Source: Candidatus Woesearchaeota archaeon (lineage in GTDB: Archaea; Nanobdellota; Nanobdellia; SCGC-AAA011-G17; PNOQ01). From it: a DNA stretch of 64,000 nucleotides. How positions within the stretch are numbered: position 1 is the first letter of the stretch; every line of letters begins with the position of its first letter. Position numbers and translations under genes: made by a program. Shown piece after piece: positions 30,971 through 46,548 of this stretch. The stretch is from positions 1,498-65,497 of the forward strand of contig CAYFNK010000002.1 of assembly GCA_964344555.1 (NCBI GenBank), read 5' to 3'. A model generated the notes under the pieces. The model searched no databases, was not told the DNA's origin, and saw only the letters and a program-made list of their open reading frames with translations.

Positions 30971-31174
30971 ATGAATCTTGATGACGAAGTTAAAAGATAT
31001 ACTTTCTATGCCGATATGTGTAATATGTATGAAAGTAGAATAAGATACTACAAGGAAAATGTTGGTAAGAGAACAGAATTTGATACAGAAATAAGTGAAA
31101 ATTTAATAGAAACTTTTGAAAGGGGTTATGAATCTTTTAAGGAGAGACATAAATATCTTAGACCAAAAGATTAA
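30971..31174 (+). CDS. Hypothetical protein (67 aa); its last 31 nt lie in a 65-bp direct repeat
   Basis: ORF only. The C-terminal ..ERHKYLRPKD is duplicated at 34227-34259. Confidence 0.4.
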   Translation: MNLDDEVKRYTFYADMCNMYESRIRYYKENVGKRTEFDTEISENLIETFERGYESFKERHKYLRPKD

Positions 31175-31208
31175 TTATTCAAGTTTGCTGTTGTATCATT
31201 TTCAGATA
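31144..31208. repeat. 65-bp perfect direct repeat, copy 1
   Basis: gagacataaatatcttagaccaaaagattaattattcaagtttgctgttgtatcattttcagata is identical base for base to 34227-34291. Confidence 0.95.
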
Positions 31209-34226: not shown

Positions 34227-34291
34227 GAGACATAAATATCTTAGACCAAAAGATTAATTATTCAAGTTTGCTGTTGTATCATTTTCAGATA
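34227..34291. repeat. 65-bp perfect direct repeat, copy 2
   Basis: Identical to 31144-31208. The flanks diverge immediately on both sides. Confidence 0.95.
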
Positions 34292-34619: not shown

Positions 34620-36671
34620 CTATCCAATAAAACTTACATGGTTTTTCTTATTCAACTTTATTATATTCTCAACAAAAGATTCTATCTTATTCTCATGACT
34701 AACTAATATTACTTGTTTTATATCTAAAGATTCTAATACTATTCTTAATCTATCCAACTGGGCTTCTGAAAAACCATCTGTAGGTTCATCTAGAATAATT
34801 AAATCCTTAGTTCTAATAGAAGTCATCAGATTATTAATAACTTGATTTAAAGCTAAACGATAAGCTAAAGCAGCAGCAGTCTTCTCTCCACCAGATAAAT
34901 GTAAGTAATCAATATCATAACCATTTTGTTCTATAACTGGAGTAAAACTTTCATCTATCCTAATCTTCAACAACTCATTATCAATAAGAATATCAAACCA
35001 ATCTCTAAATAACTTATCAAAGTCAGAAAACGCCTTCAACATTATCTTCTTCTCAATTACTTCCATCAAATTAACAAATTCTTTCTCTAAAAAGAACTGT
35101 AAATCTATTAATTTAACAATATTTAGTTTAATTCTTTCCTTCTTTATTATTTCCTTATCTAAAGAGTTAACAAATTCCTTATTAGAACTTATATCTCTTT
35201 CAAAACCAACTTTTTCTGATTCTATTTTTCTTAATTCTTCTAGTAAACTATCTAGTTCTAGTTTTAATTTAGAATAAACTTCATTTAGATTATTAAATTC
35301 TAGAACTTCCTTGTTTAAAGATTCTAATTCTAGTTTTAAGTTTTCAACTTCTTTGGAGATTAAGACATTTTCTTCTTCTAGTTTTGCTTTTCTTAACTTT
35401 TTTTCTTCAAATGACTTCAACTTTAATTTTATTAATTCGATTTCTCTTTCTTTTTCCCTAAGTGCTTCTAATTCTTTATTTAAGTTTTCTAAGCTTTCTT
35501 CTTTTAATTGTAAACCTGAACTAAAATTCTTCAAATTATTTTCTGCTTCTAAAACTATCTTATCTTGTTCAGAAAAAACTCCTGATTTGTATTCATCTCC
35601 AACTAGTTGCTTACAAGTAGGACAAACATCTAAGTTGTGAAATTTTCCTTTAATATCTTTAGCGTGTTCAATTTTAATTTCATAAGTTCTAATTGTGTTT
35701 TTTATTGCGTCTAGTTTTTTAGTTGAACTAGAAATCTCTTCTTTTTTGGATTCAATTTGTTTAATTAATTCTTCAGAATTTGGAACTTCTTTGATTTCTG
35801 TATTTTTTATTTCTTCTTCTAAATTGTTAGCTTCATTCTTATTCCTTTCAATTTGAGATAAGTTTGATTCTAGTTTAGTATTTTTAACAGAAATTTTTGT
35901 TTTTATTTCATTTAGTTTTGTTATCTTGTCTTCAATTAACTTAATCTCTTCTTTTTTAGAATTAATTTTCTTATTAGATTCTTCATGTAATGGTAAAATC
36001 TTAGATAAGGATTCTTCTAAGTTTTTTATTTTAGTTAAAAACTCTTCTTTAGAACTTTTCTTTTCTTCTAAATCAGAGACCCTTCCTGTAAATTCTTTAA
36101 CTTTTAATTTTATCTTAGAAACAAAAAACTTTGTGTTATTAATTATTGTTTTATACTTTTCAATTCCAAAAACTCTTCTTAGAATGTCTAACCTTTCTGA
36201 AGGATTTTCTAGTAAAATATGTTTCATCTCTTCTTGAGGAGTATAAACTGTATATCTGTAGATTAAATCTTTACTTTTAGTTAGAACTTCTTGTGGGTAA
36301 TTTAGTAGGTTTATTATTTCTTGTTTTAGTTCTACTGTGCTTAGATCTTTTCTTTCTCCATCTATTTCTATATGTCCTGCATCTTGAGCTATTGATTTTT
36401 TTCCTCTTGAGAGATTTCTTTGAATTCTTATGTTTTTGTTTTTTATTTCGAAGTTTAGTTCTACTGAACCTTTATCTTCTCCATTTCTTAGTAAAGAGGC
36501 TCCTGAGAGATTTGTTCTTCTTGTTCCAAATAGTGCAAATTCTGTAGCTAGTAGAATTGTTGATTTACCTGACCCTATGTCTCCGCTTAGTAAGGTAGAA
36601 CCAGTTGGGAAGTTAATTTCTGCGTTTTCATAACTTCTTATGTTGTTTAGTTTGATAGTCTTAAGTAGCAT
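34620..36671 (-). CDS. rad50: DNA double-strand break repair ATPase Rad50 (short coiled coil)
   Basis: Walker A GDIGSGKST, long Lys/Glu coiled coil, zinc hook CPTC, signature LSGGEK, Walker B LIILDEPT. Confidence 0.9.
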   Translation of the reverse strand: MLLKTIKLNNIRSYENAEINFPTGSTLLSGDIGSGKSTILLATEFALFGTRRTNLSGASLLRNGEDKGSVELNFEIKNKNIRIQRNLSRGKKSIAQDAGHIEIDGERKDLSTVELKQEIINLLNYPQEVLTKSKDLIYRYTVYTPQEEMKHILLENPSERLDILRRVFGIEKYKTIINNTKFFVSKIKLKVKEFTGRVSDLEEKKSSKEEFLTKIKNLEESLSKILPLHEESNKKINSKKEEIKLIEDKITKLNEIKTKISVKNTKLESNLSQIERNKNEANNLEEEIKNTEIKEVPNSEELIKQIESKKEEISSSTKKLDAIKNTIRTYEIKIEHAKDIKGKFHNLDVCPTCKQLVGDEYKSGVFSEQDKIVLEAENNLKNFSSGLQLKEESLENLNKELEALREKEREIELIKLKLKSFEEKKLRKAKLEEENVLISKEVENLKLELESLNKEVLEFNNLNEVYSKLKLELDSLLEELRKIESEKVGFERDISSNKEFVNSLDKEIIKKERIKLNIVKLIDLQFFLEKEFVNLMEVIEKKIMLKAFSDFDKLFRDWFDILIDNELLKIRIDESFTPVIEQNGYDIDYLHLSGGEKTAAALAYRLALNQVINNLMTSIRTKDLIILDEPTDGFSEAQLDRLRIVLESLDIKQVILVSHENKIESFVENIIKLNKKNHVSFIG

Positions 36672-36721
36672 GTAAGGTAGAATGATAGAAAGTATTTATT
36701 GTTTTTGTTAGAATAGTTAGT

Positions 36722-36729
36722 TTTATATA
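36722..36729 (+). promoter_or_regulatory. Putative TATA box for the precursor-peptide operon
   Basis: TTTATATA lies 42 nt upstream of the ATG at 36771. An AGAGGG ribosome-binding-like sequence is at 36760-36765. Confidence 0.3.
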
Positions 36730-36770
36730 TTTTGACTACGTTATTAACTAAAACTCCAAGAGGGAATAAA

Positions 36771-37010
36771 ATGGGCGATATGTACAAAAATTCTGCGTCA
36801 AAGTACAATAGTCTGAAAGACAATGAAAAGGAGATTCTTGGGATGAGTTCGGTGATTGAAAATGCACCTTATGAACTTATGAAAGATTACAAACTTGCTT
36901 TAAGTGGAGATTCTACTGGACAATCTAGTAGTAGTAGCCATAGTAGTAATTCTAGTAGCAGTAGTGCTTCAGGTGCAACTAGTAGCAAAAATCTCGAAGA
37001 CAAATTATAA
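36771..37010 (+). CDS. Candidate RiPP precursor peptide (79 aa) with a Ser-rich, Cys-free C-terminal core
   Basis: The ATG at 36771 is preferred over the TTG at 36732. Product MGDMYKNSASKYNSLKDNEKEILGMSSVIENAPYELMKDYKLALSGD-STGQSSSSSHSSNSSSSSASGATSS-KNLEDKL. It lies immediately upstream of YcaO. Confidence 0.6.
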   Translation: MGDMYKNSASKYNSLKDNEKEILGMSSVIENAPYELMKDYKLALSGDSTGQSSSSSHSSNSSSSSASGATSSKNLEDKL

Positions 37011-37042
37011 ATTTTAAAAGAGAGGTGTCTTAATTAAACAAA

Positions 37043-38281
37043 ATGACCCTCTCCAAAATTTTGAAAAGTTTAGAAAATATTGATTTAGTTGGAGATATTC
37101 ATGAGATATTTATGATAACTGATGAACCGAAAATACCAAATTATTTGTGTTATCCTAGCAAAAAATTTTCTAAAACATATAAATTAGATGATTCATTTGG
37201 GCAAGGTTTTGATTATAATTCTACTAAATCTAAGATTAAATCTGTTGGAGAATGTTTAGAAAGGCTTTGTTTGTACAATATAGGAGATAAACCTTTTGTT
37301 AAATCTAAATACGATCCAAATGATAAATTGTTTGTAGATCCTTCTATATTTTATTGCTATTCTTCTTCTCAGGATAAAAATAAGGAACAAACTTTAGAAA
37401 AAATAAGAAATAGTAAATTTAGGTGGTCTAAAGTTAAGAGACTTAATTCTGATGAAGAAAAATTTATTCCCGCTCAACTTATTTATTTAGATCCTATTTT
37501 TGATGATGAATTCCCAATAAGAAAAGAGAGAATTAGTACGGGTGCGGCGTTTGGTAAAACTGGAACAGAATTTGCATTTGAGGGGGGACTTATGGAATCT
37601 TTAGAAAGAGATGCAACTATGGGAGCTTATATTACTAAAAGAAGTATAAAGAGGATTTACAATCTTCCAAAAAAACTTGAAAATATGGTAGATTATCTAA
37701 GGAGATATCAGTTGGATGCAAATATATTTGATATTACTACTGATTTAAATGTTCCTAGCATTATGACTATTGTTTTAGATAAGACTGGAATTGGTGCAGC
37801 AGTGAATATTGGATCAAGGGCATCTACAAACTATTTTGATGCTATTGAAAAATCAATTCTAGAATCGATACATTGTAGAAGATCTAGTAGATTAATGAAG
37901 AAATTCCAATTTCCAAGTAAACTGCCTTCTGAAAATGAAATAGATTGTATGGACAATAGATTTTACTATTGGTATTCTAAAAATAGAATTAAAGACCTTG
38001 ATTTTTGGTTAAATACTTCTGAAAAAATTGATTATAAAAAATTAATTAGAAAAAATATAGATTTAAATTCTACGATTAATAACTTAGTTAAAGAAAACTA
38101 TAACATATTTGTTGGAGATTTAAGTTTACCGCAAATTAAAGATGAAGGTTTTGAAACAATTAAAGTGATAATCCCAGAATTGCATCCCCTATACCTTGAT
38201 GAAAATGCAAAATCGCTATACTCCAACCATTATGGAGAAATACTTGAAGACAAGGGCCTTAAACCCCATCCACTAACTTAA
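37043..38281 (+). CDS. YcaO-family cyclodehydratase (SagD/McbD-like)
   Basis: SKIKSVGECLERL, ISTGAAFGKTGTEFAFEGGLMESLERDATMG, and a Pro-containing C-terminus ..LKPHPLT. GAGGTG lies upstream. Confidence 0.75.
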   Translation: MTLSKILKSLENIDLVGDIHEIFMITDEPKIPNYLCYPSKKFSKTYKLDDSFGQGFDYNSTKSKIKSVGECLERLCLYNIGDKPFVKSKYDPNDKLFVDPSIFYCYSSSQDKNKEQTLEKIRNSKFRWSKVKRLNSDEEKFIPAQLIYLDPIFDDEFPIRKERISTGAAFGKTGTEFAFEGGLMESLERDATMGAYITKRSIKRIYNLPKKLENMVDYLRRYQLDANIFDITTDLNVPSIMTIVLDKTGIGAAVNIGSRASTNYFDAIEKSILESIHCRRSSRLMKKFQFPSKLPSENEIDCMDNRFYYWYSKNRIKDLDFWLNTSEKIDYKKLIRKNIDLNSTINNLVKENYNIFVGDLSLPQIKDEGFETIKVIIPELHPLYLDENAKSLYSNHYGEILEDKGLKPHPLT

Positions 38282-38282
38282 A

Positions 38283-38996
38283 ATGTTAAAAGATATAAAA
38301 AAATTTTATGAAAAAGTAAAGCTAAATAAAGCTACTGAAGATATTTCTATAGAAGTTCCATTGTCTTATGTACATGTTTTTCATAAAGAATATGAGAGGT
38401 TACCTTTTATAAATCTCCCAGAATTAGATAAGGATGGAGAATTTGAAACCCTGTTAGAATTACGTAAGTCAACTAGGCAATTTTCAGATAAACCTCTTAG
38501 TCTTAAAGACGTATCTAAAATACTTGGTTCTTGTAGAATTGTTGATGAAAAAAGAGTTCCAGAAAAAAGAACATATCCTTCCGGCGGGGCGAGATTTCCG
38601 GTTGAATTATATCTTATGTCTTATAACATTGAAGATCTAGAAAGTGGTGCTTATCACTATAACTTTAAGAAAAAAGGACTAGAATTACTTTTAGAAAAAA
38701 ATCTTGATAATAAAAAAAGAGAATTAATATCTCCTTACTTAGATAATCCTGCCGCTACAATAATTTTTACTTCCTCTATTCCTCGATCTGAAATAAAATA
38801 TGGAAATAGGGCATATCCTTACTCACTTATAGAAGCAGGACATATGGGTCAAAATATTCATTTAGCTTGTGCAGAAAAAGGAATTGGTTCTTGTTCAATT
38901 AGTGGTTTTGTTGATACAACAGTTAATAAACTTCTAGATCTAATTGAAGATGAGATCCTTTTGTATAGTATTAGTGTAAGGTGGGAAAAAATATGA
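38283..38996 (+). CDS. SagB-type FMN-dependent azoline dehydrogenase (nitroreductase fold)
   Basis: RKSTRQFSD, TYPSGGARFPVELYL, Lys-Tyr motif in EIKYGNRAYPY, EAGHMGQNIHLA. The start is 1 nt after the YcaO stop. Confidence 0.75.
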   Translation: MLKDIKKFYEKVKLNKATEDISIEVPLSYVHVFHKEYERLPFINLPELDKDGEFETLLELRKSTRQFSDKPLSLKDVSKILGSCRIVDEKRVPEKRTYPSGGARFPVELYLMSYNIEDLESGAYHYNFKKKGLELLLEKNLDNKKRELISPYLDNPAATIIFTSSIPRSEIKYGNRAYPYSLIEAGHMGQNIHLACAEKGIGSCSISGFVDTTVNKLLDLIEDEILLYSISVRWEKI

Positions 38997-39775
38997 GGGA
39001 AAAATTAGAGTATAATATCTCTTTATTTATGGATAGTCCATTAAATGAGAAGTATATTGAGAATACTATTAAAAAAATTAATTATGATAAAGAAATTGGA
39101 TTTGCAGGTTTTAAGAATAAAGAAGGTTTGAAACAGTTTCTTAATTTCTCAGTTTTTGGTAAAGATAGTAATAGTGAACATATTATCCCTGATTTAAATG
39201 AGATATCCAAGATAATTGGTAAAACTCTAGAGTTATGTTCGAAGTTTATCTCAACTAAAATAAATATTTTTGTGTTCTCAACAGTTGATAAATTTACAAT
39301 ATCTAAACTCGGAGGAGTTTCTGGTTATTCCCCTTGGAAAAATACAATTTTATTAAATATTAGTGAAGGTGAGAATTTAGAGAAAGCAATAAAAGAAACA
39401 CTTGTTCACGAGTTGGCTCATGCAATATCTCTTAATAATATTAAAGTTGAAAAGTTAAAGGAATCCCTTATATTTGAAGGTATAGCTGAAAACTTTAAAG
39501 AAGAAATAGTCAAAGAAGAAAATGTGATTTCAATAAAGCCGCTCTCTGAGAAAAGATCTTTTGAAATTCTTAAAGATTTAAATGGTAAACTTGATAATTA
39601 TGATTCTGATCTTTATAGAGAATTATTTTTTGGTACTGGAAAATATCCTTTGTGGACAGGGTATTCAATTGGATATTACTTAGTTAAAAAATATCTAGAA
39701 AACTTGGAAGTTGTGAACTGGAGTGATATATTTAAGACAGATTTATCTGAAATCTTTGATAAAGTAATTATTTAA
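38993..39775 (+). CDS. HExxH zinc metalloprotease-like protein (DUF2268-like)
   Basis: TLVHELAHAI with downstream FEGIAENF. The ATG at 38993 overlaps the SagB-like stop as ATGA and is preferred to the GTG at 38981. Confidence 0.55.
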   Translation: MREKLEYNISLFMDSPLNEKYIENTIKKINYDKEIGFAGFKNKEGLKQFLNFSVFGKDSNSEHIIPDLNEISKIIGKTLELCSKFISTKINIFVFSTVDKFTISKLGGVSGYSPWKNTILLNISEGENLEKAIKETLVHELAHAISLNNIKVEKLKESLIFEGIAENFKEEIVKEENVISIKPLSEKRSFEILKDLNGKLDNYDSDLYRELFFGTGKYPLWTGYSIGYYLVKKYLENLEVVNWSDIFKTDLSEIFDKVII

Positions 39776-39950
39776 TATACTTTTTTATAGCTCCAGGAGT
39801 GTTGTTCAATCTGCTATAACAATACCCATGTTCTGTTTTAGCTTCCTCACTTATTTTTTTCTCTAAAGGGCTATTTGTTTTAATTTCTTTTCTATGGAAA
39901 TAATTTAAATATTTATCTAATAATTCTTTAAGTTTATATTTCATACTCAT
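39768..39950 (-). CDS. Hypothetical protein (60 aa)
   Basis: ORF only; downstream of mre11 on the same strand. Confidence 0.3.
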   Translation of the reverse strand: MSMKYKLKELLDKYLNYFHRKEIKTNSPLEKKISEEAKTEHGYCYSRLNNTPGAIKKYIK

Positions 39951-39987
39951 AAATTTGTAAGTTGTTAGAAACTTAATAATCTTTTGA

Positions 39988-41208
39988 TTAATCCCAAATA
40001 TCCTCCAAACTCAAACTTTTAATCAGATTCTTCTCTAATCTCTTCTCAAAATCGGCATTCTTCTCACCTTCTAATTTTTCTTCTGCTAAAACTTCTTTCA
40101 AATCAGATAAACTTTCTTTAGTAAACTCTAACTTGGAATCTTGCTTAGAAAATTCTTCAATTAAACTCTCTTCAACTTTATCAATGTCTGTAGACTCAAT
40201 CTCTAGTTCTTGTATCTCTTTAGTTTGTAACTTATTAGTATTCTTCAAAACAATATAAGCATCGTCTAACTTATCAAAAATCTCATTAGAATTAATATCT
40301 GAAACTTTTCCACTAAATAAACTACCTTTAATTCTTAAAGTAACAATTTTATCCTTAGAATCTAATTTATTTACTTCTTGAATAATAAATTCTTCTGCTT
40401 CTGATGATGTTTTTCCATCAACATTTAATTTCACTTTCTCAACTTTCTTTGGTTCAATAAATTCGTATCTTAATCTTGTAATTTTATTATTTTGAACTTC
40501 AACAATGTAAAAACCTCCACCGCCAAATTTCTCTAACTCCATAAAATTATTCGGAAAAGTAGCTCCTGGATAAGTAACTAAACCAAACCCTTCTGGATTT
40601 GAATCAAAAACAACGTGAGGATGTCCTCCAGCATAATAATCAAAACCTTTTGGAAATTTATCTAAATCTATGCCTTCAACCATTTCCATTCCTTGAGGTT
40701 TATATTCATTAATAATGTGATGAAATAAAAATATCTTGAAACCTTCTTCTGCTTCTAAATTAGTCTTATCTAGAATATCATAGTCTAATCTTTCCAAACC
40801 TTTTGCCTTTCCATATAGGCCAGTTAGTTTGGCTCCAGTTTTATCTGTTGTAAACTTTAATTTTAAAGAATCTTCACTTCTTTCAATTTTCATAACATTT
40901 GTAACTAGTCCAGAATTTTCAAAAACGTCTATCATAGTTTTCCCAGAAGGACTAAAATCATGACTTCCAGGAATTATGTAACATTCTATCTCCCTATCTT
41001 TTAATTTTTTAAGAATTGAACTAACTTCTTTGATTAAATCTATATTTGGTAATGCGGTATTAAACAAATCTCCAGCAATAAGAACAAATGCAACATTTTC
41101 TTCTATACACTTATCTATTCCTCTCTTAAAGGACTCTGTACTCACTATATTGAGCTTTTCTTCTTTCCATCCACCTATGTGTACATCAGAGAAGTGTGCA
41201 AATTTCAT
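39988..41208 (-). CDS. mre11: DNA double-strand break repair nuclease Mre11
   Basis: Calcineurin-like phosphoesterase motifs FAHFSDVHIG, AGDLFN, PGSHD, GGHPH. Acidic C-terminal region. Confidence 0.85.
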   Translation of the reverse strand: MKFAHFSDVHIGGWKEEKLNIVSTESFKRGIDKCIEENVAFVLIAGDLFNTALPNIDLIKEVSSILKKLKDREIECYIIPGSHDFSPSGKTMIDVFENSGLVTNVMKIERSEDSLKLKFTTDKTGAKLTGLYGKAKGLERLDYDILDKTNLEAEEGFKIFLFHHIINEYKPQGMEMVEGIDLDKFPKGFDYYAGGHPHVVFDSNPEGFGLVTYPGATFPNNFMELEKFGGGGFYIVEVQNNKITRLRYEFIEPKKVEKVKLNVDGKTSSEAEEFIIQEVNKLDSKDKIVTLRIKGSLFSGKVSDINSNEIFDKLDDAYIVLKNTNKLQTKEIQELEIESTDIDKVEESLIEEFSKQDSKLEFTKESLSDLKEVLAEEKLEGEKNADFEKRLEKNLIKSLSLEDIWD

Positions 41209-41232: not shown

Positions 41233-41640
41233 TTAAAGGTTTCTAAAACTTTCTTGTTTTCTAATCCAAGGTAATTTAGATTCTTCGGTAATTTGTTTTA
41301 CTATTTCTCTTGAATATTTTTCTTTATTTGCTATGTAATCTAAAATGTTTATATCTTTTATTACTTCATATTGTAATATTTTTTGTGCTGCCTTATATTT
41401 TGCTGTTTTGTTCTTTAAAATTCCAAATTTACAAAGGGTTTTTGTTATGAAATTATTCCCAACCCTTCTTACTAAACTTTCTGCTGATTTAATATCTTTT
41501 GAATAATCTTGTAGGTAATTATGGTATCTTTTTTTGAATTTATTATCTTCATATTCTAAAATTATATCATCTGGTTTAATATAACCAAGATCTAGATTCT
41601 TGTATTTCAATGGCCCCATTCCTTCTACATAAACTACCAT
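41233..41640 (-). CDS. Hypothetical protein (135 aa)
   Basis: ORF only. Confidence 0.4.
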   Translation of the reverse strand: MVVYVEGMGPLKYKNLDLGYIKPDDIILEYEDNKFKKRYHNYLQDYSKDIKSAESLVRRVGNNFITKTLCKFGILKNKTAKYKAAQKILQYEVIKDINILDYIANKEKYSREIVKQITEESKLPWIRKQESFRNL

Positions 41641-41691
41641 ATTATTCTTGGTTCAATAAGACTTAAATAAGTTATCTAATTATATTCATTT

Positions 41692-41931
41692 ATGATAAAT
41701 TTAATTGATTTCTTTAGGAAAGAGAAACCTAAGAATATAATTTATGATCCTTGCTGTAACAATTGCGAATATGGACAAAGAGAATATTCTATGTTTGATG
41801 AAATTTCTCCCACTGGAATTAGATGTGAATTTGGCATAGAAAACAATCGTGAATTTGATTATTTATGTGATTTGTATAAGAAAGATAAACTATTTATTGC
41901 ATATAATAAAAGTTTAGAGAGTAGTATGTAA
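41692..41931 (+). CDS. Hypothetical Cys-containing protein (79 aa)
   Basis: CCNNC..C..C residues; ORF only. Confidence 0.35.
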   Translation: MINLIDFFRKEKPKNIIYDPCCNNCEYGQREYSMFDEISPTGIRCEFGIENNREFDYLCDLYKKDKLFIAYNKSLESSM

Positions 41932-42283
41932 TTATACTTGCTACTGCTCCTAGTAAAACTCCTTTGATTATAAACTTCTTATCTTGTTTCAAATAAATAG
42001 TTGATCCAAGTAATAACACCCAAATGAAGCTAGCAAATATTGTAAAATCTCGCACGTTGTAAAATAAAACACTAAAGACTAAGACGACTATACTTCTTGC
42101 TAAATGTAGATTTGATTTTACAAACAAACTTACTAAAGTTATTATTACTAGACTTAATAGTAGTTGGTATGTGTAAAGCATGTACTCTCCAATTAGAGAT
42201 CTAGCCATTGCTAAAAAGAAAAAAGGAAGACCTCCTAGAGCTAATAAATCTCTAGAGATCTCTTTAATTAATTCTTTTTTCAT
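41894..42283 (-). CDS. Integral membrane protein (4 TM)
   Basis: Hydrophobic helices; no motif recognised. Confidence 0.45.
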   Translation of the reverse strand: MKKELIKEISRDLLALGGLPFFFLAMARSLIGEYMLYTYQLLLSLVIITLVSLFVKSNLHLARSIVVLVFSVLFYNVRDFTIFASFIWVLLLGSTIYLKQDKKFIIKGVLLGAVASIITYYSLNFYYMQ

Positions 42284-42318
42284 AGGTTATTTTTGGAGGA
42301 GGAGTTTAAAAGTTTTTT

Positions 42319-42489
42319 CTATCCTGTTAGAAAGTTTACCATATCTAACATCTCTGATCTAATTTGACGTCTTGCGGAGTCATAGCATTCGCCACACACA
42401 GGAACTCCGGAGTTGTCATACGTATAGAATAGTCCGTTACATCTGTTGCAATGGATCTCTCTCCCGACAAAAAGTTCTTCTTCATACAT
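42319..42489 (-). CDS. Small zinc-ribbon protein (56 aa), not in the ORF track
   Basis: MYEEELFVGREIHCNRCNGLFYTYDNSGVPVCGECYDSARRQ.. with CNRC..CGEC. The patch is locally GC-richer. It explains the region better than the plus-strand ORFs 42180-42362 and 42372-42563. Confidence 0.45.
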   Translation of the reverse strand: MYEEELFVGREIHCNRCNGLFYTYDNSGVPVCGECYDSARRQIRSEMLDMVNFLTG

Positions 42490-42597
42490 ATTATTTAACC
42501 CCCTTGTTATATTATAGATGGAGATTGATTAATATATACTTAATCGATATAGAATATATGTAATATATTTTTTATTTAAAAAGAAAAGAAAAAGAAG

Positions 42598-43611
42598 TTA
42601 TACGCCGCAAGCTGCGACGTTTGCACTTCCAGTTGTACTCCAACCAAATCCTGGACCTGGTTGTCCTGCTTCTAACTGAGTGTTACACTCTTCAGGAGCT
42701 TCGTTGAATGCACCACATATGGTGTTTAGTAAAGTTATAGAATCTCTACCAGTTTGAACTTTTTGTCCATTAATAACTAGTGTTGGTGATCCTCCAACTC
42801 CATATTTCTCGTTATCCTCTTTATGAATATCAAATAACGGGAATCTTCCATTCAACCATGAAGATGTATCTTCTAAGTTTGCTATAACGTTGTATTCTTG
42901 ATCAACTCTGTTATAACACTCAGATAGGGCAGTAGTGTCTATTCCAACTTCTGCATCACATCTATCACTGTCTCCATCTTCAAGGAAACATGTCATGTAA
43001 TCTAAGAATTTATCTTCTTGTTCTTCTTGTATACAATACTGTCTAAGTTGTTCTTCAACTTCTCCTTGAGTAGGGTGCATTGCATAGTACACAAACTTAA
43101 AGTCTAAATCTATCATTTCACCTAATAGATAAGCTACAGGTAAGATTCCTTTTTCCATTTGAGTACCATAAGGACAGTGACTCATAACAAATAATTCCAC
43201 TTCAGGTTTATCTGATTTAGGAACTTCAGGTGAAGCCTGTGGTTGTTGTCCGGTTGCAGCACCTGTAACCTCAGTCATAGGAATTGCATTTAGAAACATT
43301 AAGCTTGCATCTTGATTTACATATATTGGAGTTTCTTGTCCTTGTACATTAACCGATAATACATATAAACCATTCTCAGTAGTCACATCATTCAATGTTG
43401 CTGTGGCTTGTCCTTGTAACAAACCAGTATTTATGAAATTTAAAGCTTGCTCGCCTACCTCGTCATTTGATAATGCTCCAAAACCAACATTTCCTCCTGT
43501 TGTTAATGAACCTATTAGAAGTAAACCTAGAACAAAACTATAAATTTTCCATTTATTTAATCTTTTTTTAGGCATAGCAGGTTTGTTTTCTGCTTGCTTG
43601 TTTTCTTCCAT
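42598..43611 (-). CDS. Membrane-anchored thioredoxin-fold (DsbA-like) protein with a CPYG active-site variant
   Basis: N-terminal TM IYSFVLGLLLIGSL. FVMSHCPYGTQ sits where CxxC is expected, and GGSPTLVINGQ is the cis-Pro loop region. Confidence 0.55.
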   Translation of the reverse strand: MEENKQAENKPAMPKKRLNKWKIYSFVLGLLLIGSLTTGGNVGFGALSNDEVGEQALNFINTGLLQGQATATLNDVTTENGLYVLSVNVQGQETPIYVNQDASLMFLNAIPMTEVTGAATGQQPQASPEVPKSDKPEVELFVMSHCPYGTQMEKGILPVAYLLGEMIDLDFKFVYYAMHPTQGEVEEQLRQYCIQEEQEDKFLDYMTCFLEDGDSDRCDAEVGIDTTALSECYNRVDQEYNVIANLEDTSSWLNGRFPLFDIHKEDNEKYGVGGSPTLVINGQKVQTGRDSITLLNTICGAFNEAPEECNTQLEAGQPGPGFGWSTTGSANVAACGV

Positions 43612-43669: not shown

Positions 43670-43831
43670 TTAAAACTTTTTATTCAGTTTAGGTAGAACT
43701 TTGTAAGCAAAAAGAGCTCCAATAATCATAATTCCCCAAAAAATTGTAGTTTCTATAACTTGAAATACAAATAGTATGAAATTTGCTATTACTATAAATA
43801 TTAGAAACCAACTAAATCCTTTTGTTTTCAT
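43670..43831 (-). CDS. Small membrane protein (53 aa), not in the ORF track
   Basis: MKTKGFSWFLIFIVIANFILFVFQVIETTIFWGIMIIGALFAYK... Its ATG overlaps the RNase J stop as ATGA. Confidence 0.4.
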   Translation of the reverse strand: MKTKGFSWFLIFIVIANFILFVFQVIETTIFWGIMIIGALFAYKVLPKLNKKF

Positions 43832-45171
43832 TTTAGAACTGTTTTCTTTCCGTTGTTAAGGAATTGTAAGTGTTTTTCTGTTTTGTATCCTAGTAAATTA
43901 GCTAAATCTTCTATGTGCCCTGTAACTCTTTCTTTGTCTCCGTGTCCAGGAATTACAACTTCTGGCTTAACCATTCCTATAAGATCCCTTATATCTTCTC
44001 TGGAACCATGTCCTGAAACGTGAATGTCTTTGAATATTCTTACCCCTCTTCCTGCTAATCCAGATTCTAATTTAGCTCTGTTTTCAATGTTTGGTTCAAC
44101 AGGAATTGTTTTACATGAAAATATTACATGATCGTCATGTTCAAATTTAAAAGGTAGCTTTCTATCACCAATTCTTGTCAAGATAGCATTTGGTTCTGCC
44201 TGACTTCCTGTGCATACTACCATGTATTTGTCTTTGTTTTTTTCTATTTGATGTAGTTTTTTTTCAACTTGTCTGGCATAAGTCATTATTTCTACATCTT
44301 TGCTTAGGTTTACTAGGCCTACTGCCTCTGCAGCTTTAACATATTTGTTTAATGATCTTCCTAAGAATACGATCTTTCTATTAAGTTTTTTTCCAAATTC
44401 AACCATGCTTCTTAACCTTGCTATATGGCTTGCAAAACTTGTAACAAACATTGCATGGCCTTCATTGTCTGCTCCAAACATTACATCTTTTAACATTTCT
44501 TTAGCTACTGATTCAGAAGGAGTTTTCATTGCTTTACTAGAATAAAGGGAATCTACAATTACTGCCTTTACATTTCCCTGTTTCCCAAGCTGTCTTAATC
44601 TTTTGTAATCTGGTTTTCCTCCCATTGTTGGTTGATTATCTAATTTGAAATCGTTTGTGTATAGAACAATTCCGTCAGGAGTGTGAATCGCTAGGCTTGC
44701 GGTATCTAATGTGGAATGAGTCATTCTTATGAATTCAACTTTGATATTTTTAGAAGCATTATATGTAGTACTTGTTTTTTTTGATATTAACTTATTTGAG
44801 AATCTTAGTTTTTCATCTTTTGCTAGAGTTTTTATTACTTCTATTGTATATGGTGTTCCTACTATTGGTGCTTTGTAATGATTTTCTAAATAAGGTATTG
44901 CTCCAACATGATCTAAGTGACAATGAGAAGGAATTATTGCTTTTACTTTATCTCTTAATGAACTAAGAACTGTATCATCTGGTATTGCCCCTATTTTTTG
45001 TAGACCTTTTGGAGTAAGATTTCTTCTGTCTCCTCCTCCTTCTTCAAAACCAACTAAACTTGGTAAGTGAAATCCACAATCTAGAATTACTGCTTCGTCA
45101 TTGTATTTGACAACGGTCATGTTTTTTCCTACTTCATCATAACCGCCAATTCCAATTATTTCTAAAGACAT
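43828..45171 (-). CDS. rnj: Ribonuclease J (archaeal beta-CASP metallo-beta-lactamase)
   Basis: HCHLDHVGA (HxHxDH) and a beta-CASP region. Its 447 aa is typical of archaeal RNase J. Confidence 0.8.
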   Translation of the reverse strand: MSLEIIGIGGYDEVGKNMTVVKYNDEAVILDCGFHLPSLVGFEEGGGDRRNLTPKGLQKIGAIPDDTVLSSLRDKVKAIIPSHCHLDHVGAIPYLENHYKAPIVGTPYTIEVIKTLAKDEKLRFSNKLISKKTSTTYNASKNIKVEFIRMTHSTLDTASLAIHTPDGIVLYTNDFKLDNQPTMGGKPDYKRLRQLGKQGNVKAVIVDSLYSSKAMKTPSESVAKEMLKDVMFGADNEGHAMFVTSFASHIARLRSMVEFGKKLNRKIVFLGRSLNKYVKAAEAVGLVNLSKDVEIMTYARQVEKKLHQIEKNKDKYMVVCTGSQAEPNAILTRIGDRKLPFKFEHDDHVIFSCKTIPVEPNIENRAKLESGLAGRGVRIFKDIHVSGHGSREDIRDLIGMVKPEVVIPGHGDKERVTGHIEDLANLLGYKTEKHLQFLNNGKKTVLK

Positions 45172-45216: not shown

Positions 45217-46548
45217 TTATGGTCCGCCTTCGCCGCCACCGTCTCCTCCTCCAGAGTCGCCTCCATAGTCACCTTCGCTGCTATCTCCGCCACCATAATC
45301 TCCTCCGCTGTCACCACTGTAATCTCCATCGTAATCCTCGCTGTAATCTCCTCCGTCATGATCTCCCTCATAGTCTTCACCACTATATCCTTCATCATAA
45401 TAATCATCATATTCCGGTGAGTATTCTTCACCGTAATATTCACCTTCTTGAGGGTATTCTACTTCTGGAGAATATTCTCCCTCATAGTAATCATCTTCGT
45501 AGTAGTCATCTTCATAATAAGGGTAATCTCCTTCATTATAGTATCCGTTTTCTGGATAATACTCATTTTCTCCAGGATAATAACCATCATATCCATTATC
45601 ATAGTCTCCATAATAATCTTGATAGTAATCTTCTGGATGTTCATAATATTCTCCAGGTCCTCCTCCTGGATTGTACATTCCGTAATCTCCATAATATTCA
45701 TCGTAGTGATCATAATCGTCGAAATGACATTGGCAATTTCCTCCTGAGAAATCCCAGGCTCCACCTTGCTCACTACAACTTTCTGCACATTCTCTTTCTA
45801 GTTCTTTTGTTTCTGCATATCTTTCTTCGTAACTTTCAGAATGATCTTGATCCATAGCTGAATCATAACATCTCAATCTTTCTTCTGAATTTTGAATTCC
45901 TCTACAATGAGCTCCAAATCCCATATTTGGTCCACCAAATCCAATATCTTCCATCATTCTTTTACATTCTACTTCGTCTGCTTTGAATTCTCCAGTTAAT
46001 CCAGCATCAATGCATTCTTTAGGTGCATGCCTTTCAAACATTATTTTTTCACATTCACGAGGATCAGATAATCCTGCGCATTCTTCTGGAGCATGTACAT
46101 CAAACATTATTCTTTCACATTCTCTGTGTGCTTGATGTTCGCTTTTGAAATATATTTCTCCTCTGTCTAGAGCAGCAATACATTCTGATGGAGCGTGTTC
46201 TCTAAACATAATCAACATACATTCTTCCATGCTTACTCCTTCACATTCTTCTGGAGCATACATGTCATAATGTGCCTCTCCATACATCATTTCAACTTCT
46301 TCTAAAACGTGTTGTAGATGTTCAGGCAATAAATCCATTGGATCTTCTTGATCCATCTCTTCACAGGCATCTTCATTTCCAGCCATACATTCTACTGCCA
46401 GTGGAGCCATCACTTCACATTTTTTAGAAAATGATGTAATTGATATCTTATCACATTCACATTCTGCAGGATCTTGGAAACAATTAGACATAACCTCAAA
46501 GAATTCTTTAGCTTCCTCTTCTTGTTCTTCAGTTAATTCCGAATACAT
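45217..46548 (-). CDS. Extremely acidic protein with a Cys-repeat domain and a Tyr/Asp/Glu/Gly low-complexity tail; probably the C-terminal part of a larger secreted protein
   Basis: Three full ECxxIMFxxHAPxEC-type units (residues 109-178), preceded by a partial MYAPEEC (residues 96-102). From residue 276 onward the composition is almost only Y, D, E, G, P and S. The frame stays open 63 codons upstream of the ATG, to 46737, with no start codon. Confidence 0.6.
   Translation of the reverse strand: MYSELTEEQEEEAKEFFEVMSNCFQDPAECECDKISITSFSKKCEVMAPLAVECMAGNEDACEEMDQEDPMDLLPEHLQHVLEEVEMMYGEAHYDMYAPEECEGVSMEECMLIMFREHAPSECIAALDRGEIYFKSEHQAHRECERIMFDVHAPEECAGLSDPRECEKIMFERHAPKECIDAGLTGEFKADEVECKRMMEDIGFGGPNMGFGAHCRGIQNSEERLRCYDSAMDQDHSESYEERYAETKELERECAESCSEQGGAWDFSGGNCQCHFDDYDHYDEYYGDYGMYNPGGGPGEYYEHPEDYYQDYYGDYDNGYDGYYPGENEYYPENGYYNEGDYPYYEDDYYEDDYYEGEYSPEVEYPQEGEYYGEEYSPEYDDYYDEGYSGEDYEGDHDGGDYSEDYDGDYSGDSGGDYGGGDSSEGDYGGDSGGGDGGGEGGP

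Follow-up and report, generated by a model that had tools for sequence, protein, structure and literature searches.

Peptides carrying azol(in)e heterocycles are made from ribosomal precursors by YcaO cyclodehydratases, which are normally studied as two-component enzymes. In TOMM/LAP azole-peptide gene clusters, a leader followed by a Gly/Ser/Cys-rich core is encoded directly upstream of a YcaO cyclodehydratase and a SagB/McbC-type FMN dehydrogenase with a Lys-Tyr motif, and the leader is removed by a metalloprotease. Azoline-forming YcaOs normally need an E1-like (McbB/SagC) or Ocin-ThiF partner, although the bottromycin YcaOs act without a partner protein on a substrate that carries a C-terminal follower element, making one thiazoline and a macroamidine in a cluster that has no SagB-type dehydrogenase of the kind described below (PMC8442711, PMC4603692). 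Ser is a poorer substrate than Cys for characterised cyclodehydratases. However, in telomestatin biosynthesis in Streptomyces, five consecutive Ser of the TlsC core CTTSSSSS become oxazoles through the YcaO TlsQ and the flavin oxidoreductase TlsP, showing that conversion of poly-Ser to poly-oxazole is feasible (PMC5469769). The product is a small macrocycle with one Cys-derived thiazoline, and its formation needs the additional essential proteins TlsO and TlsR and two peptidases. The cyanobactin heterocyclases LynD, TruD and MusD (PDB 4v1t, 4bs9, 7u58) are proteins of about 750-780 aa with RRE and E1-like domains at the N-terminus, and are accompanied by PatA/PatG-type proteases. The MusD pathway gives an oxazole-only product, muscoride. 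[quoted passage not shown]

In Archaea, the haloazolisins of Halobacteria were predicted in a 2015 bioinformatic census, which reported truncated fused C-D cyclodehydratases, precursors with mostly Ser-rich cores, and an unidentified leader-binding component, and which noted that stand-alone D-protein clusters are poorly known (PMC4603692). Their products are uncharacterised. No archaeal YcaO-derived peptide natural product has been characterised, and a 2025 survey of archaeal RiPPs still cites only the 2015 census for YcaO peptides (PMC12144867).

Here we report the analysis of a Ser-rich small ORF and its neighbours in a 64,000-nt stretch of DNA (hereafter the window) from a Candidatus Woesearchaeota archaeon. 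The ORF heads a compact gene set, comprising a predicted precursor peptide, a YcaO-domain protein, a SagB-type dehydrogenase and a DUF2268 zinc protease, which is widespread in DPANN archaea and seems undescribed. Like the TOMM/LAP clusters, the locus encodes a leader-core peptide next to a YcaO and a SagB-type dehydrogenase, but it has no E1-like or Ocin-ThiF partner in cis, its YcaO scores below the SagD family cutoff, its candidate protease belongs to DUF2268 and is encoded inside the cluster, the peptide has a conserved C-terminal follower, and the core of this member lacks Cys. It differs from telomestatin by the absence of any sequence relationship between the precursors, and from the bottromycin system by having both an N-terminal leader and a follower.

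Composition of the Ser-rich ORF

The original prediction described a Cys-free, almost pure Ser core of 25 residues, flanked by a 47-aa leader-like region and a 7-aa charged follower, and this observation was confirmed exactly. Translation of the region 36732-37010 gave the 79-aa peptide MGDMYKNSASKYNSLKDNEKEILGMSSVIENAPYELMKDYKLALSGDSTGQSSSSSHSSNSSSSSASGATSSKNLEDKL, which has no Cys, and its residues 48-72, STGQSSSSSHSSNSSSSSASGATSS, contain 16 Ser and 2 Thr. Ser makes up 6.8% of residues in the long ORFs of the window, giving a binomial probability of 2e-13 per position for at least 16 Ser in 25, over about 18,000 positions scanned, and no other 25-aa stretch in the window reaches 16. Ser codons in the peptide are AGT (12), AGC (3), TCT (4), TCA (2) and TCG (1), or 68% AGY against 32% AGY in the long ORFs of the window, and 12 of 16 Ser codons in the 25-aa core are AGY. 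The description of this tract as microsatellite-like was overstated: Tandem Repeats Finder reports period 3 with only 64% matches and a score of 31, close to the minimum of 30 that we set, and the longest perfect run is (AGT)3. The features of the locus are listed in Table 1.

Table 1. Features of the precursor locus and its borders (window coordinates)
Feature	Position	Strand	Description
rad50	34620-36671	-	Archaeal-type; borders the cassette
Possible archaeal TATA box	36722-36729	+	TTTATATA, about 40 nt upstream of the precursor start codon; read by eye
Shine-Dalgarno-like site	36760-36764	+	GAGGG, 6 nt upstream of the ATG; read by eye
Predicted precursor peptide gene	36771-37010	+	79 aa; ATG at 36771, stop at 37008-37010
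Leader region	36771-36908	+	aa 1-46; conserved Tyr near the N-terminus, LxxSS; ends at conserved Gly46, a candidate cleavage site (inferred)
IENAPY motif	36855-36872	+	aa 29-34
Ser-rich core	36912-36986	+	aa 48-72
Position-conserved part of core	36918-36971	+	G50-S67, GQSSSSSHSSNSSSSSAS
C-terminal follower	36990-37007	+	NLEDKL, matching the family motif (S/G)LE(x)(K/R)(V/L/I)
YcaO-domain protein	37043-38281	+	412 aa, YcaO domain only; starts 32 nt after the precursor stop; GAGAGGTG about 15 nt upstream
SagB-type FMN dehydrogenase	38283-38996	+	237 aa; Lys172-Tyr173 motif
DUF2268 zincin-type metalloprotease	38993-39775	+	260 aa from the ATG; a GTG start at 38981 is possible; candidate leader and/or follower peptidase
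mre11	39988-41208	-	Archaeal-type; borders the cassette

Distribution of the cassette and of its precursor peptides

The four genes lie on one strand with 1-32-nt gaps or small overlaps, in the opposite orientation to the flanking rad50 and mre11. The window has about 28% GC. Rfam and tRNA scans showed only one tRNA-Val in the window and nothing near the locus. The YcaO has at least 175 homologues at E <= 1e-10, and those of its database relatives that carry names are from Woesearchaeota, Pacearchaeota, Aenigmarchaeota and Nanoarchaeia, which makes a DPANN archaeon the most likely host. Scans of genome and metagenome collections with a YcaO alignment, together with exact-protein look-ups, gave 36 close loci (individual loci are designated L with a number), and the cassette recurs in varying genomic contexts in dozens of DPANN archaeal contigs and a few bacterial ones. 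Only three protein families recur in the 36 loci, namely YcaO (35 loci), SagB (36) and DUF2268 (22). DUF2268 is missing from some related loci that have enough downstream sequence (L002/L093, L008, L165). No conserved partner, transporter or immunity gene was found beyond these three families, and no E1-like or Ocin-ThiF partner is conserved within about 5 kb in the 36 loci, although a partner encoded elsewhere in the genome is not excluded. The flanks are unrelated, and no other locus has rad50 or mre11 next to the cassette, which is thus a self-contained, mobile unit. A search for direct or inverted repeats at the cassette borders between rad50 and mre11 as insertion scars revealed only short AT-rich chance matches.

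The original prediction had proposed a comparison of small ORFs upstream of orthologous YcaOs as a test, and its outcome was positive. A small ORF lies directly upstream of the YcaO in 26 of the related loci (in L092 it is downstream of DUF2268), giving with the window 28 distinct sequences, whereas the nine loci without one include contigs that end just upstream of the YcaO (L164, L172) or hold only part of the cassette (L096, L098, L105). These ORFs have a leader with the consensus xYx...LLExSS(V/I)IE(N/D)A(P/A/V)Y, a core rich in Ser, Gly, Cys and Thr, and usually a C-terminal (S/G)LEx(K/R)(V/L/I). In four alignments E30 is invariant, while S26 and Y34 are invariant within the sub-family that includes the window. 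Two loci carry two such genes in tandem (L170/L171).

A word-indexed search with the single precursor found only the peptide itself, and no Pfam or NCBIfam model matches it. The family became visible only through genomic context and then through profiles. A profile of the leaders recovered 20 database proteins, and a full profile search of 1.84 billion representative proteins found 77 clusters at E <= 1e-3, all but one of which are 53-117 aa long and nearly all of which carry the motif. All database copies that carry a name are called "hypothetical protein". The lack of a Pfam or NCBIfam match and the outcome of the word-indexed search would fit a fortuitous low-complexity reading frame, or a non-substrate small protein next to a YcaO/SagB pair that acts on something else. 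However, this possibility is effectively refuted by the conserved position upstream of the YcaO, the conserved leader and follower motifs, the tandem duplicates, an internal core duplication in one peptide (P0148; P numbers designate individual family peptides), the size of the family and the Shine-Dalgarno-like site. Thus the ORF is a genuine gene, and its interpretation as a precursor is well supported by comparative genomics.

Literature searches on YcaO proteins in connection with DPANN archaea, Woesearchaeota and similar lineages, on DUF2268, on Ser-rich or polyoxazole peptides and on the project accession PRJEB17505 found no description of this family. In particular, we found no description of the DPANN cassette, its leader and follower motifs, the conserved Cys-free SSSHSSNSSSHSAS core, or a DUF2268 peptidase in a RiPP cluster, and DUF2268 is not mentioned in the 2023 review of RiPP leader peptidases (PMC10885120). 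Ser-rich archaeal cores, in contrast, have already been predicted for the haloazolisins. Neither the haloazolisin cores, nor the telomestatin precedent, nor the absence of a partner protein was noted in the original prediction.

Predicted enzymes of the cassette

The YcaO-domain protein matches PF02624 at 6e-34. Its best-scoring NCBIfam model is the SagD family TIGR03604, at 144 bits, below the curated cutoff of 219.25. The canonical ATP/Mg-binding motifs are intact, with E70, E73 and R74 in GECLER and E185, E188, R189 and D190 in ESLERD invariant in 27 homologues, and the protein keeps a Pro-rich C-terminus, KPHPLT. The AF2 model (pLDDT 91.8) is a bare YcaO domain, for which the top Foldseek hits are LynD (1e-22, TM 0.71), MusD, the archaeal thioamide YcaOs including MjYcaO, and McbD. 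By sequence profile, the best matches to solved structures are MusD (3.6e-16), TruD, MJ1094, LynD and McbD. Its closest solved relatives by sequence and by fold are azoline-forming heterocyclases (MusD, TruD, LynD, McbD), followed by the thioamide YcaOs.

The identity to the cyanobactin heterocyclases is only 17-18%, the alignment to MusD starts at MusD residue 397, the TM-score normalised to the target is only about 0.4, and the cassette contains no subtilisin-like or PatA/PatG-type protease genes. The cyanobactin-type N-terminal RRE and E1-like domains are absent, and the system is not a cyanobactin system. A haloazolisin assignment was rejected because the protein is not a truncated C-D fusion, the halobacterial YcaO loci in the scan (L032, L036) are only 21-25% identical, the hosts are DPANN lineages, and the leader motif and the DUF2268 protease also differ. 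A TfuA-associated thioamide-forming (McrA-type) assignment was likewise rejected, with a score of 36 bits against the TIGR03266 cutoff of 365 and no TfuA or other sulfur-transfer gene conserved nearby.

The SagB-type dehydrogenase scores 108 bits against TIGR03605, above the cutoff of 78. It has PDB sequence hits to McbC, BmdC and CyaGox, its Lys-Tyr pair aligns with that of McbC, and K172 and Y173 are invariant in 27 of 27 orthologues. The third protein matches PF10026 (DUF2268) at 2e-26, and its H139-E140-x-x-H143 and E166 are invariant in 17 of 17 orthologues, whereas a search against PDB sequences gave no hit.

Proposed maturation pathway

The best reading, which we hold with moderate confidence, is that the ORF encodes the precursor of a minimal four-gene peptide-maturation cassette carried by a low-GC DPANN-type archaeon, and that the product is a linear azole-type peptide. 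In this view the YcaO recognises the conserved leader (LLxxSSVIENAPY) and/or the C-terminal LExK(L/V) element directly, because no partner is encoded in cis, and uses ATP to activate backbone amides so that the side-chain hydroxyls of core Ser/Thr attack and form oxazolines. The SagB-type flavoprotein would oxidise these to oxazoles, and the DUF2268 metalloprotease would trim the leader, probably after the conserved Gly46, and perhaps the follower as well. The analysis itself establishes the enzyme identities, the conserved catalytic motifs, the gene order precursor-YcaO-SagB(-DUF2268) recurring in 36 loci, and the conservation of the peptide family, whereas peptide recognition, heterocycle formation, oxidation, proteolysis and the partner independence of the YcaO are all inferred from sequence and from precedent.

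The interpretation given in the original prediction was partly supported. It proposed an oxazol(in)e-only polyazole, unlike the Cys-containing cores of classical examples, and this remains plausible from the enzyme set: because the core has no Cys, any azoles formed would be (methyl)oxazol(in)es only. Probably only a subset of the 18 Ser/Thr is converted, and complete conversion is unlikely.

An alternative, which we consider less likely but still live, is that the peptide is the true substrate while the YcaO performs another backbone-amide activation, such as ATP-dependent cleavage of the follower as in MusD, amidine formation or thioamidation, or that only one or a few heterocycles are formed and most Ser residues act as a hydrophilic spacer. 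It is favoured by the lack of a partner, the SagD score below cutoff, the best PDB sequence match to MusD, the conserved C-terminal LExK(V/L) motif, which could be a removable recognition sequence, and the fixed His, Asn and Ala positions of the core, which suggest a defined structure and not a uniform polyazole. Follower cleavage could also be an additional role of the YcaO. Against this alternative, a SagB-type dehydrogenase with an intact Lys-Tyr motif, whose only known role is azoline-to-azole oxidation, is always adjacent in the 36 loci, the thioamidation model scores poorly and lacks its associated genes, and cores across the whole family are dominated by Ser, Cys, Thr and Gly, as in azole peptides.

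Leader recognition may be built into the YcaO or SagB, which have an invariant N-terminal T-D-E-P-K motif and an invariant N-terminal F33/K35/Y37/E38/R39 motif, respectively, but this is speculation. A more far-reaching reading, possible but tentative, is that the system represents a previously undescribed RiPP class native mainly to DPANN archaea, in which a bare YcaO domain recognises the leader (SSVIENAPY) and/or the follower (LExKV) by itself, possibly through its invariant TDEPK(I/F)P motif, and together with SagB converts the Cys-free core into an oxazole-only linear polyazole, with the DUF2268 zincin acting as a new type of RiPP peptidase. This would be the first natural-product pathway assigned to these genome-reduced symbionts and a natural Ser-specialised, partner-free cyclodehydratase. 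A compact, partner-free YcaO/SagB pair working on Ser-only cores would be a useful minimal biocatalyst and would test how leader recognition can be built into the YcaO domain itself, and the conserved Cys-free core offers a concrete, synthesisable substrate. DPANN archaea have very small genomes and are thought to depend on hosts, and the wide retention of the cassette suggests that a modified peptide matters to their lifestyle.

Conservation of the Ser tract

Most family members have 1-4 Cys after the leader motif, as in GNGCKCKSSSSSSPCRASSLEFKVEKE and GTCNCASSKSSGGTCRALSLENSV, while about 16 of roughly 76 representative clusters, or about one fifth, have none, so that Cys-free cores are real and recurrent. 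The window belongs to a Cys-free or Cys-poor sub-family with the core G-x-S-x-S-S-S-H-S-S-N-S-S-S-(H/S)-S-A-S followed by (S/G)LE(D)K(L/I/V). Across 12 sequences, each representing a different cluster at 50% identity, G50, S54, S58, N60, S62 and S63 are invariant, and S52, S55, S59, S61, S65, A66 and S67 are at least 90% conserved. Three members that we checked (L167, L173, L174) are each followed by a YcaO 50-53% identical to that of the window, including two of the new sub-family members (50-51%).

The original prediction further suggested that the AGY tract could change length by slippage and so vary the core. This idea was not supported, and we regard it as very unlikely. In its favour, AGY codons are enriched, the Ser run of another sub-family (GNGCKCK-S(n)-PCRASSLEFKVEKE) differs by one residue among orthologues (for example, P0128 against P0124), and two of the 12 representatives carry a 3-aa insertion (P0158) or a 1-aa deletion (P0185). 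However, the other 10 of 12 have no indels in the core, with His, Asn and Ala fixed, and the repeat signal is weak. The identical protein occurs on 7 contigs, and the gene with 130 nt of flanks is base-identical in four separately assembled samples of one project, while the wider loci carry 1-3 mismatches elsewhere. The 90%-identity cluster of the precursor has a single member sequence. The codon class of individual Ser positions is also conserved in the window, L167, L173 and L174, as AGY-AGY-AGY-CAY-AGY-AGY-AAY-TCN-AGY-AGY, while synonymous third positions differ. Because switching between AGY and TCN requires passing through a non-Ser codon, this pattern indicates long-standing purifying selection on each Ser.

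Cys occurs sporadically at positions that are Ser in sister sequences (P0168, P0177, P0185), as expected if both residues serve as interchangeable cyclisation nucleophiles. A rough neighbour-joining tree of the YcaOs places Cys-free members (the window, L167) and Cys-bearing members (L165, L169) in one clade.

Genomic context of the YcaO cassette

The YcaO cassette splits rad50 and mre11, which usually form an adjacent gene pair in archaea. This context was shared by none of the 36 related loci, and no insertion scars were found. Elsewhere in the window, we found a perfect 65-nt direct repeat, whose copies are 3083 nt apart and bracket a DEAD-box helicase, a 106-aa ORF, a 3-methyladenine DNA glycosylase, and a 48-aa ORF. 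It could represent either a duplicated intergenic or promoter element, or the ends of an inserted segment. Several ORFs around mre11 had no Pfam match, while another one is a beta-CASP RNase J-like protein.

Features of the window and of related loci (designated L)
Sequence	Positions	Strand	Feature
Window	31144-31208		65-nt direct repeat, one copy
Window	34227-34291		65-nt direct repeat, other copy
Window	34620-41208	rad50 and mre11 -; cassette +	rad50, YcaO cassette, mre11
Window	37043-37140		YcaO residues 1-32
Window	38283-38420		SagB residues 1-45
Window	39768-39950, 41233-43611, 45217-46548	-	ORFs of 60, 135, 129, 337 and 443 aa
Window	43828-45171	-	beta-CASP RNase J-like protein
L008	5432-7952		Bryobacterales cassette (1.87-Mb contig)
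L092	3604-6719		Rearranged cassette
L164	3180-4919		Locus with the closest YcaO homologue
L170	776-1385		Tandem precursor genes
L171	5-614		Tandem precursor genes
L174	90-377		P0148, peptide with duplicated core

Variation of the cassette and its conserved motifs

The cassette also occurs in bacteria, as seen in L008, L095, and L002/L093. The Bryobacterales precursor in L008 keeps the IENASY leader but has a core of four LAASC repeats, whereas L095 has three LLAGC-like repeats. L002 is labelled Saccharibacteria and entry P0081 is labelled Patescibacteria. This bacterial occurrence suggests cross-domain transfer or mis-binning.

Some loci possess two tandem precursor genes with the same leader but different cores, and in P0148 the SSSHSSNSSS core is duplicated internally. 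In L092, sagB is located on the opposite strand upstream of the YcaO gene, and the precursor lies downstream of DUF2268. The contig of L164, which encodes the closest YcaO homologue (57% identity), has a LAGLIDADG endonuclease and a radical-SAM gene just downstream of the cassette, while its precursor is cut off by the contig end.

Both enzymes have invariant N-terminal motifs outside their catalytic domains, namely T26-D27-E28-P29-K30 in the YcaO and F33-K35-Y37-E38-R39 in SagB, which are candidates for leader binding or for YcaO-SagB contact.
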